Position numbers and translations under genes: made by a program
Notes under the pieces: model-generated
What the model saw: the letters and a program-made list of their open reading frames with translations, nothing else
What the model was told of the DNA's origin: nothing
Databases searched by the model: none
Shown: positions 16,022 to 32,076 of the stretch, piece after piece
Position numbering within the stretch: position 1 is the stretch's first letter
Layout: the number at the start of each line of letters is the position of its first letter
NCBI GenBank assembly: GCA_041891555.1
Contig: JASDTK010000026.1
Coordinates: 1 to 37,404 of the forward strand
Reading direction: 5' to 3'
DNA length: 37,404 nucleotides
Source: Oscillospiraceae bacterium
Lineage (GTDB): Bacteria; Bacillota; Clostridia; Oscillospirales; Oscillospiraceae

Positions 16022-16579
16022 ATGCTTACTTATGAGATAGATATAGCCGGATTGAAACGCCAGCTGCCCATCTGCCGCGTGACGGATGATCTCTATATCG
16101 GTTCCTTCGTCATTTTCGGCGATGTGGAGCTCACTATACACTGCGCGACGGAACTTCTTAAAAAGGCTCCCGAATACGACTACTTACTGGCTCCTGAGGC
16201 GAAGAGCATACCCCTCCTCTACGAAATGGCTCGTCAGAGCGGTAATAATAAGTATTTTCTCGCCCGCAAGTCCGCGAAGCTCTATATGACGGACGTGTTT
16301 GAAGTGGAAGTCAAATCCATCACGACCGAAAAGGTTCAGAAGCTGGTACTCGACAAGGCGGACGCAGATGAGATGCGCGGCAAGCGCGTACTCATCGTGG
16401 ACGATGTTATATCAACCGGAGAATCCCTCAAGGCCGTCGAGGAACTGGTTGAAAAAGCCGGCGCCATTATCGCGGGGCGTGCTTTTATCCTTGCCGAGGG
16501 CGATGCCTGCGATAGAGACGATGTAATTTTCCTTGCACCGCTGCCGCTCTTCAATGCGGACGGTACTCAGAAAAAGTAA
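16022..16579 (+). CDS. Type I phosphoribosyltransferase family protein (Apt/Xpt-like)
   Basis: PRPP-binding motif VLIVDDVISTGESL. Substrate cannot be assigned from sequence alone. Confidence 0.75.
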   Translation: MLTYEIDIAGLKRQLPICRVTDDLYIGSFVIFGDVELTIHCATELLKKAPEYDYLLAPEAKSIPLLYEMARQSGNNKYFLARKSAKLYMTDVFEVEVKSITTEKVQKLVLDKADADEMRGKRVLIVDDVISTGESLKAVEELVEKAGAIIAGRAFILAEGDACDRDDVIFLAPLPLFNADGTQKK

Positions 16580-16706: not shown

Positions 16707-17843
16707 CTATTCCACAAGCCTCACAGTCATTTTCGGGAGACAGCTAAGGTCGTCCTCTCCGGAAGTAATCCTTATCGAGCTGCCGTTAAAGTTCAGGACT
16801 TTCCCGATGACCCTTCCGTTTATTGTCTGGTTTGAGCCGTTCATCATGATTGTGCCGTTTGGAGCGTAAACAAGCCCTTCCAGCTGGATGCCTGAGCCGT
16901 TAATCGTTATGTTTCCGCTTTCCGAATAGAAGCATACCGAATCTTTTGAGGAATACATCAGATTACTTCCGTTAAATGTAATACTGCCCGACACCAGAAC
17001 TACGCCGCTGCCGGTGAAGTCGCTTCCGTTGACGGTTAAGCTGCCCTTTACATATATGGGAGAATCAACGCTTACCCTGCTGCCGTTAAAGGTCTTGTTT
17101 CCGTTGTATGCCTGTCCCGCTGCCTGAGCCTCGGCCTGTATTGCTTCGGAAAAGTCTGGCATATCGATTATGGGCGCGGCGCTGAAGACTTTGCTTCCGA
17201 TATTGATGCCGCTGCCGTTTACAGTAATAGCCGCGGCCTGGCATGCCCCTCCGACAGTAATGCATGAACCGTTCATAGTAATGCTGTTTACGGCTTCGAC
17301 CGAGCCCGTAATGTTTTGAGAAGAGCCATACATATTGAATTTGTAGTTTGAATGAACGTTACCCTTGATATATTGGCTGCTTCCGTTTATGGCCAATATG
17401 TCGGAGCTGCTGCCCGAAAAAACCGTATAGTTGAACGGACCTGTGTTCATACCCGTTTTTTCCGCAACAGAGCTTGCCAATATGGTTTTGCTGTGTAAGC
17501 CCAGAACAGTTGCTATTGTATAGCTGACCGTTCTTGTGCAAACGACCTCAATTTTTTCGGAATCACCGTTAAAAGGAGCGGAGACCGCTATCTCGGAAGC
17601 CAGCATTCCGTTTTGTTCGGCGAGTTTAACCGCTGTGCTTTTAGCTGCGGAGCTTGACGGCAAATCCTGCGCTCCGCCCAGGGCCGCCGAATCTGCGGCA
17701 GTCTGCAGCCGATCTTGTTCAAGAGAAATTCGCCCCAAGTCAATTGCCAGCGCGGATCCCGCGCATAAAACTGCAAAGACCAATACAAATATCACCATAG
17801 ACTGGCCGGCTTCGTCTTTAAAAAGCTTAAATTTTGATACCAT
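16707..17843 (-). CDS. TadE/TadG-like N-terminal domain protein with a C-terminal NGS-repeat (beta-solenoid-like) region
   Basis: The N-terminus reads DEAGQSMVIFVLVFAVLCAGSALAIDLGRISLEQDRLQTAADSAALGGA, as in Flp-pilus TadE/G-like proteins. There are nine [IL]T[VFIM]NGS units. GGAGG-N6-ATG precedes the gene. It is monocistronic, sitting between a riboswitch terminator and a gene-end terminator. Confidence 0.75.
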   Translation of the reverse strand: MVSKFKLFKDEAGQSMVIFVLVFAVLCAGSALAIDLGRISLEQDRLQTAADSAALGGAQDLPSSSAAKSTAVKLAEQNGMLASEIAVSAPFNGDSEKIEVVCTRTVSYTIATVLGLHSKTILASSVAEKTGMNTGPFNYTVFSGSSSDILAINGSSQYIKGNVHSNYKFNMYGSSQNITGSVEAVNSITMNGSCITVGGACQAAAITVNGSGINIGSKVFSAAPIIDMPDFSEAIQAEAQAAGQAYNGNKTFNGSRVSVDSPIYVKGSLTVNGSDFTGSGVVLVSGSITFNGSNLMYSSKDSVCFYSESGNITINGSGIQLEGLVYAPNGTIMMNGSNQTINGRVIGKVLNFNGSSIRITSGEDDLSCLPKMTVRLVE

Positions 17844-17916
17844 AAAAAACCTCCGGTAAACAGCATTGATCAGTATCCAACATCGTCATTCTGATTTTCA
17901 CCCAAAAAGCAGGAAT

Positions 17917-17946
17917 AAAAAAAGTCGTTCAGGTTACCTGAACGAC
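17917..17946 (-). terminator. Intrinsic terminator forming the riboswitch expression platform
   Basis: The minus strand reads GUCGUUCAGGU-A-ACCUGAACGAC (11-bp perfect stem, 17924-17946) followed by U7 (17917-17923). It lies between the aptamer and the RBS. Confidence 0.85.
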
Positions 17947-17971
17947 ACTCGGCACAAATAGACAGAGTAAC

Positions 17972-18060
17972 ATTTTCGGCAACCGGCTGTCATAGTCTTT
18001 ATGACCTTAGACCCTTGGCTTTGCGTCCCTGTCTTTCGGCAGGTTTGCTATTATCGACCT
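17972..18060 (-). promoter_or_regulatory. c-di-GMP-I (GEMM-I) riboswitch aptamer
   Basis: Minus strand: AUAGCAAACCUGCCGAAAGACAGGGACGCAAAGCCAAGGGUCUAAGGUCAUAAAGACUAUGACAGCCGGUUGCCGAA. It shows GCAAACC, a GAAA-capped hairpin (CCUGCC/GACAGG), the invariant GGGACGCAAAGCC (18017-18029), a second hairpin (GUCAUA/UAUGAC) and a closing CAGCCGGUUGCC. Confidence 0.85.
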
Positions 18061-18089
18061 GTATATTCAATTTTTCACTTTATGATATA

Positions 18090-18118
18090 AAGATATATGC
18101 GAACCGGACATCTGTCAA
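18090..18118 (-). promoter_or_regulatory. Possible promoter for the riboswitch transcript (TTGACA-N17-TATCTT)
   Basis: -35 TTGACA at 18113-18118 on the minus strand. The -10 candidate TATCTT at 18090-18095 is imperfect. Confidence 0.35.
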
Positions 18119-18169
18119 TATATTATTTCTCGAAGCCAACACGAAATATCACATATTAGCTGAAAATAC

Positions 18170-18659: not shown

Positions 18660-19244
18660 ATGCTCGAAGCGATACTGACAGAAATACTGCTAGGGGCAAG
18701 CCTTTCGATGGATGCCTTTGCCGTGACCGTCGGAGAAGGTCTTGCCTGTCCGCGGGGCGGGCTGAAAAACGCACTTAAGCACTCGCTCTATTTCGGCTTT
18801 TTTCAGGCTCTGATGCCGCTCATAGGCTATTTTCTCGCCGGAACGGTCAGCGGAAAAATAATGTCGCTGGGCCCGTATATCAGCTTTTTCATGCTCGTTT
18901 TCGTTGGCGGGAAAATGCTCATAGACGCCCTGAGGGGAAAAGAGGAAGACGGTGAAAAGGGCTGCGGCACATCGGGAGACTTCAGCCACCCGAAGGCCAT
19001 AGTACTCGCCCTCGCGACAAGCATCGACGCGCTAGCGGTCGGCGTGAGCTTTGCCTTTACCGAAACAAACATATTTGCGGTCTGCTCCATAATCGGCATT
19101 ACTACTTTTATAATCTGCGCACTCGGCGGGCTTCTATGTTCAAAGCTCCCGAAGGGTTCCGGCAAGGCCGCCGGCATAGCGGGCGGAACCGTGCTTATAG
19201 GGATCGGCATAAAGCTGCTGGTAGAGGGAGTATTCCTGAAGTGA
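18660..19244 (+). CDS. mntP: Manganese efflux pump MntP
   Basis: Two DUF204-type half repeats (LSMDAFAVTVG and TSIDALAVGVS), six TM segments, and GGAGGA before the ATG. Confidence 0.85.
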   Translation: MLEAILTEILLGASLSMDAFAVTVGEGLACPRGGLKNALKHSLYFGFFQALMPLIGYFLAGTVSGKIMSLGPYISFFMLVFVGGKMLIDALRGKEEDGEKGCGTSGDFSHPKAIVLALATSIDALAVGVSFAFTETNIFAVCSIIGITTFIICALGGLLCSKLPKGSGKAAGIAGGTVLIGIGIKLLVEGVFLK

Positions 19245-31801: not shown

Positions 31802-32076
31802 AAAAAAGCTCCTGCCCCGCAAGGGACAAGAGCTAAACTCCTGCGATACCACCCAAATTGACGAAAATTTCGCCCACTCGCTTCACGCACCACCATGCGT
31901 GTCCCCAACTGATAACGGGAGGGATACCCGTCGAAGCCTACTAAAGCTTTGAGCTTTTTCGGTTCGCCCTCAGAAGTCCATTCGCCGACACACCAAACGC
32001 CTCTTTTACACCGCAAGAAGCTCTCTTTGGATTGGTTTGCGTCGGTTACTACTCTTCGTCTATGGTTTTGGTTTAT
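31802..32076 (-). promoter_or_regulatory. T-box riboswitch leader, tryptophan specifier (UGG)
   Basis: Elements read on the minus strand: AGUAGUA and GAA-UGG-A specifier loop (UGG at 31978-31980); AGAGA bulge (32022-32026); distal GGUG; F-box CCGUUA (31913-31918); T-box AAUUUGGGUGGUAUCGC (31843-31859); and a 12-bp terminator stem AGCUCUUGUCCC/GGGGCAGGAGCU plus U6 (31802-31834). Confidence 0.9.

Follow-up and report, generated by a model that had tools for sequence, protein, structure and literature searches.

Known class-I riboswitches and the locus under study

Riboswitches of class I for cyclic di-GMP (c-di-GMP-I, also called GEMM-I) include Vc2 of Vibrio cholerae, the structural archetype, and Cd1 of Clostridioides difficile, which is reportedly attributed also to Sudarsan 2008. 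Here we compare these systems with a leader found in a contig of 37,404 nt from an Oscillospiraceae bacterium (JASDTK010000026.1 in assembly GCA_041891555.1; this whole stretch is called the window in the following). The leader lies in front of an orphan gene for a TadE/G-like pilin and is probably a c-di-GMP-I transcriptional OFF switch. Cd1, located upstream of flgB, is an OFF switch in which the antiterminator pairs the ligand-binding C87 with a terminator strand (Landgraf et al. 2022, PMC9262584). The variant GEMM-Ib, the riboswitch for 3′,3′-cyclic GMP-AMP (3′,3′-cGAMP), has an A at position 20 (A20) as its signature; it confers the binding of cGAMP, and among natural A20 aptamers several are bispecific (PMC6140456). 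Already at the discovery of the motif, cpaA and pil genes were listed among the gene families under GEMM control (Weinberg 2007, PMC1950547).

The leader in the window shares with Cd1 the aptamer class, the GAAA tetraloop and its receptor, a weak or absent P1 and a separate downstream intrinsic terminator. In the predicted antiterminator, too, the 3′ strand of the aptamer with its ligand-pairing C pairs with the terminator 5′ strand, in the P-A-T-H layout, and the predicted polarity is also OFF. Unlike Cd1, which has G11 at the equivalent of position 20, the window has an A there; the complement of its A strand lies at the apex (loop side) of the terminator, so that the antiterminator encloses the whole 5′ arm; and the regulated gene encodes a pilin-like protein instead of belonging to a flagellar operon. 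With Vc2, the leader has in common the three-helix junction, the docking of a GNRA tetraloop into a receptor and a pocket of the A47/C92 type, but Vc2 itself has G20, a longer P1 and an expression platform that is not a simple terminator. A20, a retained C92 and the overall fold are shared with the GEMM-Ib riboswitches Gs1761, Gm0970 and pilM of Geobacter and with the bispecific Cbe 1-2, which likewise comes from Clostridium. The Geobacter examples are cGAMP-selective and often ON, and selectivity depends also on features of P1 and lower P2. By its sequence, the element in the window appears to be a genuine class-I c-di-GMP riboswitch and thus one more case of a familiar regulator rather than a switch of a new type; the type of expression platform and the pocket variant are both already known.

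Identification of the aptamer and structure of the leader

With gathering thresholds applied, a scan of the entire window against Rfam 15 gave two matches, one to c-di-GMP-I and one to a T-box leader (RF00230). The c-di-GMP-I match (RF01051, cmscan) extends from 18059 to 17975 on the minus strand and covers model positions 1–87 of 87, with 78.4 bits (E 6e-14) against a gathering score of 35 bits. It confirms the family, which an earlier note had called from sequence motifs and for which it had named this score as the check. The following features were delineated, all on the minus strand.

18090 to 18118: sigma-70-type promoter (predicted), TTGACA and TATCTT spaced by 17 nt, matching at 10 of 12 positions in a consensus scan
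17975 to 18059: c-di-GMP-I (GEMM-I) aptamer, 85 nt, RF01051, with the junction ACGCAAAGC
18049: ligand-contact position 20 (Vc2 numbering), A here, G in the consensus
18043 to 18028: P2 hairpin, CCUGCC-GAAA-GACAGG, GAAA-capped, 5 of 6 pairs
17979: ligand-contact C, the C92 equivalent, retained; pairs with G17937 in the predicted antiterminator
17932 to 17984: predicted antiterminator hairpin, 53 nt, GGUUGCC::GGUAACC, AAUG::CGUU and (U)ACUC::GAGU(G)
17917 to 17946: intrinsic terminator, GUCGUUCAGG-UAA-CCUGAACGAC followed by U7
17844 to 17916: spacer, poorly conserved in the alignment with three related leaders (L001–L003), ending in the ribosome-binding site GGAGG (17854–17850)
16707 to 17843: regulated gene, monocistronic, for a 378-aa TadE/G-like pilin-type protein (PF13400 and DUF7305)

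Read on the minus strand, the order is thus promoter (18118–18090), aptamer, terminator, ribosome-binding site and the ATG at 17843, which places the element in the 5′ untranslated region on the same strand as the gene. The implied transcription start is predicted near 18083, ~24 nt upstream of the aptamer. The 326 nt between the stop codon of tadA (18170) and the start codon of the next minus-strand gene (17843) contain no credible open reading frame (ORF), the sole candidate being a 79-aa ORF with a TTG start on the opposite strand that overlaps tadA. The motifs GCAAACC, GGGACGCAAAGCC (18029–18017) and CAGCCGGUUGCC were all found in the leader as described before, and the GGAGG-N6-AUG of the downstream gene was correct. 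Aptamer and terminator are separated by a linker of 28 nt and do not overlap, which bears out the attenuation layout claimed in the earlier note.

Some details of the secondary structure needed revision. P2 is present and GAAA-capped, but there is one C.A mismatch next to the GAAA loop, leaving five of the six pairs that had been drawn. Its pairing is supported by covariation: across 23 related aptamers (the window and 22 from related loci, not counting the near-identical L001–L003), 13 distinct P2 sequences retain 5–6 of 6 pairs. The second hairpin had been read as GUCAUA/UAUGAC, which is complementary on paper but in the wrong register, as the Rfam alignment pairs GGGUC/GAC..CC and GUC/GAC. 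In the Rfam register of P3, CUAAG and UAUG form an internal loop flanking the inner helix GUC/GAC; we take these two segments to be the 11-nt GAAA-tetraloop receptor. We prefer this register because the substitutions in L001–L003 fit it and break the other one: the change of A18002 to U in L002/L003 yields a U-A pair in the Rfam register and a U.U clash in the alternative, and UAUGAC to UACGAC in L001 breaks an A-U pair of the alternative. The leader therefore has both a first hairpin with a GNRA tetraloop and a second hairpin with a tetraloop receptor, as is characteristic of c-di-GMP-I. In one copy of a related aptamer, on a gut-metagenome contig (L105, ERZ772821.10209), the receptor segment GGUCUAAG was found in about six tandem repeats inside P3 (~381–409); either the repeat has expanded or the assembly is at fault.

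The terminator consists of a hairpin followed by U7 (17923–17917), as noted before, but its stem is 10 bp with a 3-nt loop (17946–17924); the 11 bp given earlier would imply a loop of 1 nt, which cannot form. Six of the 10 pairs are G-C, and the hairpin reaches -15.8 kcal/mol (z -5.08). A terminator-like site on the plus strand at 18028–18043, returned by the consensus scan, was discarded as an artefact formed by the reverse complement of the P2 hairpin and a T-rich stretch.

Conservation of the leader

The downstream protein has hundreds of homologues, of which P0002 is the closest (85% identity). We sampled 65 genomic loci encoding relatives of this protein (labeled with L numbers) and found the same leader as in the window in three of them, L001–L003, which are Oscillospiraceae/Bacillota metagenome-assembled genomes with protein identities of 79–84%. 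From the -35 box to the U-tract, L001, L002 and L003 are 96.5, 87.5 and 89.1% identical to the window, whereas identity at third codon positions of the coding sequence is only 62.8, 54.4 and 54.9% (76–82% for the coding sequence overall). TTGACA is invariant, the -10 region is kept and the terminator is conserved. The spacer between terminator and start codon is 66–78% identical, with an indel of ~39 nt in L002/L003, and no conserved structure was seen in it (17844–17916) in this comparison. Because the leader is far better conserved than both the third codon positions and the spacer, the block of promoter, aptamer and terminator is under purifying selection as a unit.

Prediction of an antiterminator and of the OFF polarity

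The earlier note had left the polarity open and suggested folding the leader with and without aptamer constraints. Minimum free energy (MFE) folding of the whole leader was uninformative in this respect, as the terminator formed in both states and no discrimination was possible; an antiterminator was exposed only by length-resolved folding. It is the unconstrained MFE structure at transcript lengths of 132–138, at which the terminator loop and the first bases of the terminator 3′ arm have already emerged. At its base, GGUUGCC (17984–17978) pairs with GGUAACC (17938–17932), and the two further helices given in the feature list lie above. GGUUGCC combines the 3′ side of the helix at the base of P3 with G91, C92 and C93, and it includes the ligand-pairing cytosine. 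GGUAACC spans the terminator apex: it starts in the last part of the 5′ arm, runs through the loop and ends with two bases of the 3′ arm. The antiterminator encloses the complete 5′ arm together with the loop and these initial 3′-arm bases. Since it uses GGUUGCC and GGUAACC, it excludes both the ligand-competent aptamer and the terminator. The pairing of an aptamer 3′ strand containing the ligand-pairing C with a terminator strand is the arrangement of an OFF switch of the Cd1 type.

Folded by itself, the antiterminator reaches -17.4 kcal/mol (z of -3.88), a stability not attained by any of 200 dinucleotide shuffles. With the A strand free, it remains the MFE structure until the whole 3′ arm is out (-18.6 versus -18.1). 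We modeled the bound state by blocking the first nine antiterminator bases, GGUUGCCGA; only a linker hairpin of -6.6 kcal/mol is left in this case, and the terminator nucleates once CCUG emerges. All 15 consensus antiterminator pairs are intact in the four genomes (window and L001–L003), with the variable positions in the apical loop. Two G-to-A changes in L001 each turn a G.U of the antiterminator into A-U: GGUUGCC to GGUUACC affects a consensus antiterminator pair, and GUGCC to GUACC an apical pair of the MFE fold in the window.

Similar platforms are present in eight independent leaders with unrelated terminators, namely those of L012, L020, L022 (two aptamers), L028, L017 (two aptamers) and one abundant gut-metagenome lineage. 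In all of them, a complement of the aptamer tail lies in the terminator 5′ arm or apex. Six bases before completion of the terminator, the free MFE structure has 7–11 pairs between tail and terminator and zero terminator pairs in each of the eight, and with the tail blocked, the terminator forms in every case.

From these models, the following mechanism can be proposed. At low ligand, the antiterminator would form first and trap the terminator 5′ arm, and RNA polymerase would continue into the gene. Once the ligand is abundant, the aptamer would hold GGUUGCC, leaving just the weak linker hairpin (-6.6 kcal/mol); the terminator would then zip up as its 3′ arm emerges, and transcription would stop. 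In this scheme, the promoter, the transcription start, the binding of the ligand and the termination event are predicted. Provided that the riboswitch is functional, we regard OFF as quite likely.

Several observations weigh against this polarity. At -19.3, the finished terminator state has a small advantage over the antiterminator (-18.6); the two are nearly isoenergetic, and the argument thus depends on co-transcriptional kinetics. Compensatory double substitutions were found for 0 of the 15 pairs, as the four window-type leaders are too similar to each other, which is the main weakness; a metagenome scan with the 29-nt aptamer core yielded 95 stretches with 43 unique leaders, all G20 and all from other lineages, and neither window-type sequences nor compensatory changes among them. 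A short-duplex test of the tail against the terminator arm was not significant for the window (-8.0 kcal/mol, ~25% of shuffles as good); the arm string in this test ended before the second C of GGUAACC, and the shuffle test of the whole hairpin was used in its place. In L067 and L068, the tail hairpin is separate from the terminator, which makes for an ambiguous layout. A distant relative, L059 (2857–2990; a homologue at 30% identity, binned as Solirubrobacterales), has an ON-type layout, opposite to that of the window, before the same kind of gene; its terminator 5′ arm, GCCGCCAG, overlaps C92 and contains C92-C93-G94. Finally, c-di-GMP is usually expected to promote adhesion, whereas here it would repress a pilus-related gene.

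The same aptamer and terminator might also form an ON switch, which we consider unlikely. Here, the ligand would free the linker GUUACUCUGUC to pair with the terminator 5′ arm and loop, while without ligand the linker would pair with the P2 3′ strand and the terminator would form. In favor of this, the full-length unconstrained MFE structure (-40.5) pairs CCGAAAGACAGGG with the linker segment CUCUGUCUAUUUG and forms the terminator, the duplex GUUACUCUG::CAGGUAAC reaches -6.9 kcal/mol, and L059 demonstrates that an ON-type layout occurs in a distant relative. But both linker pairings considered in the earlier note, GUUACUCUG::CAGGUAAC and CUCUGUC::GACAGGG, are broken in L002/L003 (GUUAC to GUAAC and CUGUC to CUUUC) while the remaining leader is conserved. 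When folding is forced into the aptamer, or the aptamer 3′ strand is blocked, a stable antiterminator is no longer available (-6.6) and the terminator forms, and the helix between linker and P2 would have to unfold a local hairpin formed ~60 nt earlier. The same need to unfold the early local P2 hairpin led us to set aside another antiterminator, between the P2 5′ strand and the terminator 5′ arm (-10.2 kcal/mol); this pairing, too, would yield an OFF logic.

Position 20 and the ligand

Model position 11 of RF01051 is a strongly conserved G, and in the cmscan alignment the window has an A in this place, directly 5′ of GCAAAC (18049). We take this nucleotide to correspond to G20 of Vc2, which reads the Hoogsteen edge of one ligand guanine. 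In Cd1, G11 is equivalent to Vc2 G20, consistent with this mapping (PMC9262584). The same A is present in L001–L003 and in L020. A47 and C92 are retained, the C92 equivalent being the Watson-Crick partner of one ligand guanine, and the combination of A20 with a retained C92 is the one seen in GEMM-Ib. Judging from the sequence, the ligand is most likely c-di-GMP, and 3′,3′-cGAMP is probably accepted too in vitro. Because position 20 is A instead of G, it is likely but not guaranteed that c-di-GMP is the sole ligand.

Published affinities illustrate the range: Vc2 G20A binds c-di-GMP with 53 nM and 3′,3′-cGAMP with 120 nM, and the natural A20 aptamer Cbe 1-2 of Clostridium beijerinckii has 30 nM for c-di-GMP and 463 nM for cGAMP; A20 aptamers accommodate c-di-GMP by means of an adenine that is protonated (PMC6140456). 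By taxonomy, the aptamer in the window more likely behaves like Cbe 1-2, with c-di-GMP preferred.

Six of the 23 tabulated aptamers have A20: the window, L020, the first aptamer of L017 (L017a), the second of L022 (L022b), the first of L028 (L028a) and the one of L063 at 4476. Near homologous TadG-like genes, we found three aptamer pairs that consist of one A20 and one G20 member each.

L017, 1144–1226 and 1307–1392: adjacent tandem, order A,G
L022, 195–279 and 623–707: ~430 nt apart, order G,A
L028, 1718–1798 and 1899–1979: adjacent tandem, RF03167 (c-di-GMP-I-GGC), order A,G

This pattern could reflect chance, two sensitivities or two ligands.

That the physiological ligand is 3′,3′-cGAMP, or both dinucleotides, and not c-di-GMP alone seems improbable to us. 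The A in the G20 column with C92 and A47 retained, together with the binding properties of A20 aptamers cited above, would fit such a role, and the three A20 and G20 pairs would make sense if their members sensed different ligands. However, the only characterized clostridial A20 aptamer prefers c-di-GMP ~15-fold, and the cGAMP-selective examples so far come from Geobacter-type bacteria with Hypr-GGDEF enzymes (PMC8835794). Furthermore, there is no cyclic-dinucleotide synthase of any kind within the 37-kb window; as this is part of the genome only, the absence of a cyclic-dinucleotide enzyme applies to the genes of the window. A more far-reaching idea is that, in Oscillospiraceae-type Clostridia, A20 aptamers sense 3′,3′-cGAMP or both dinucleotides and G20 aptamers c-di-GMP only, so that the pairs in L017, L022 and L028 would be two-input gates; this we rate as a long shot.

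Association of the riboswitch with the gene in other Clostridia

We also looked at the arrangement of aptamers around homologues of the regulated gene. As in the window, a c-di-GMP-I aptamer immediately precedes the gene in L001–L003, L012, L020, L059, L061, L063, L067 and L068. In L017 and L028, tandem aptamers lie upstream of an operon containing the gene, and in L022 two aptamers are located further upstream of it. Additional aptamers precede the next genes in L014, L061, L063, L064 and L065. The riboswitch-gene pairing is thus recurrent in many Clostridia, and riboswitch use around this TadG-like gene family is unusually dense in some of them. Searching the literature, we found no specific account that connects c-di-GMP riboswitches with TadG.

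Several loci have arrays of two or three c-di-GMP-I aptamers, contained within 1–2.5 kb. In L063 (2745–2832, 4476–4562 and 4974–5058) and L061 (2829–2921, 4280–4372 and 4564–4652), the TadG-like gene comes after the first aptamer and is followed in turn by the other two, and in L064 both aptamers (997–1084 and 1235–1319) are downstream of it. The gene stands as an orphan in several loci, including L066–L068, with leaders of 266–580 nt and a different neighborhood each time. Homologues in L005, L017, L022 and L035 follow TadE or a prepilin peptidase, and in L028 the riboswitch-led leader is shared with an upstream ORF that we judged by eye to be Flp-like.

Between the tadA stop and the riboswitch promoter (18119–18169, minus strand), no terminator was predicted in the consensus scan. 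Read-through from tadA into the aptamer may therefore occur, and the terminator of the riboswitch may serve tadA, too, as a conditional terminator. One might argue from this probable read-through, and from the ~45 of ~60 homologue loci that have no c-di-GMP-I aptamer within 3 kb of the gene, that the element is a relic aptamer, decaying or non-regulatory, next to a constitutive tadA terminator (the hairpin with U7), but this is hardly credible given the full-length, high-scoring match with all core motifs, a leader much more conserved than synonymous sites, the conserved promoter between tadA and the aptamer and the statistically unusual antiterminator.

The regulated protein and its gene neighborhood

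The 378-aa product matches the Tad domain PF13400 at residues 13–60 (41.1 bits versus a cut-off of 22.3) and PF23981 (DUF7305) with 34 bits. A search of NCBIfam gave a TadE-like match only below threshold (27 bits versus a cut-off of 51). An AlphaFold2 model based on an alignment of 60 sequences, with a mean predicted local distance difference test (pLDDT) score of 88.4, shows a long N-terminal helix (residues 12–58), a small alpha/beta head and a C-terminal beta-helix (~140–360). Using Foldseek, the best PDB match was ComZ (6qvi; E 1.8e-4, probability 1.0, TMq 0.37–0.41), a competence pilin of Thermus with a beta-solenoid, followed by beta-helical ice-binding proteins and tapirins of Caldicellulosiruptor. 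With ComZ of Thermus thermophilus, the protein shares the N-terminal pilin helix with a head and the large beta-solenoid domain. Sequence identity is 9–11%, however, and the pilus types differ: ComZ is part of a type IVa competence pilus, and the protein in the window has an N-terminus of the TadE/G type (type IVc). By analogy, it is probably a minor or tip pilin carrying a binding domain; a role in DNA binding is not implied by the likeness to ComZ.

The gene is monocistronic, since the next gene, for a phosphoribosyltransferase (16022–16579, plus strand), converges on it. No Tad machinery and no tad/flp pilus cluster were found near it in the window, where the remaining genes are housekeeping genes (Maf, MreC, PBP2, HisRS, AspRS, ThiI, CinA, LepA, HtrA, aspartokinase, homoserine dehydrogenase and AsnB). 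A gene for MntP-type manganese efflux (18660–19244, plus strand) diverges from tadA, with ~40 nt between the start codons. Genes of this type are often preceded by a yybP-ykoY Mn2+ riboswitch; zero matches to yybP-ykoY were obtained in the window at the gathering threshold. The T-box leader (31819–32071, minus strand; 102.6 bits versus a gathering score of 93) precedes an ATP-binding cassette (ABC) transporter operon encoding a substrate-binding protein (PF04392, 31774–30674), a permease (30639–29749) and an ATPase (29765–28962).

Significance for c-di-GMP signaling in this group

Annotation of the aptamer as such is routine, as any Rfam scan would flag it. Beyond that, the analysis yields a concrete and testable prediction of polarity, OFF with an antiterminator at 17984–17932. 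It also shows that c-di-GMP-I riboswitches are repeatedly associated, in Clostridia, with one widespread, uncharacterized family of ~378-aa proteins that combine a pilin with a beta-helix (PF13400 and DUF7305) and are often encoded by orphan genes with their own leader. As a natural A20 variant from an uncultured relative of the Oscillospiraceae, the aptamer joins a small set of candidate bispecific sensors of c-di-GMP and cGAMP. If A20 aptamers did provide a second channel, the single A20 OFF switch in the window would link a cGAMP signal to the production of a pilus-tip protein, and riboswitch signaling by cGAMP would extend well beyond Geobacter. On the preferred reading as a c-di-GMP OFF switch, high c-di-GMP would lead to less of the pilus-tip or adhesin-like protein. 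If this polarity is true, the protein would be made at low c-di-GMP, the opposite of the textbook association of high c-di-GMP with adhesion.

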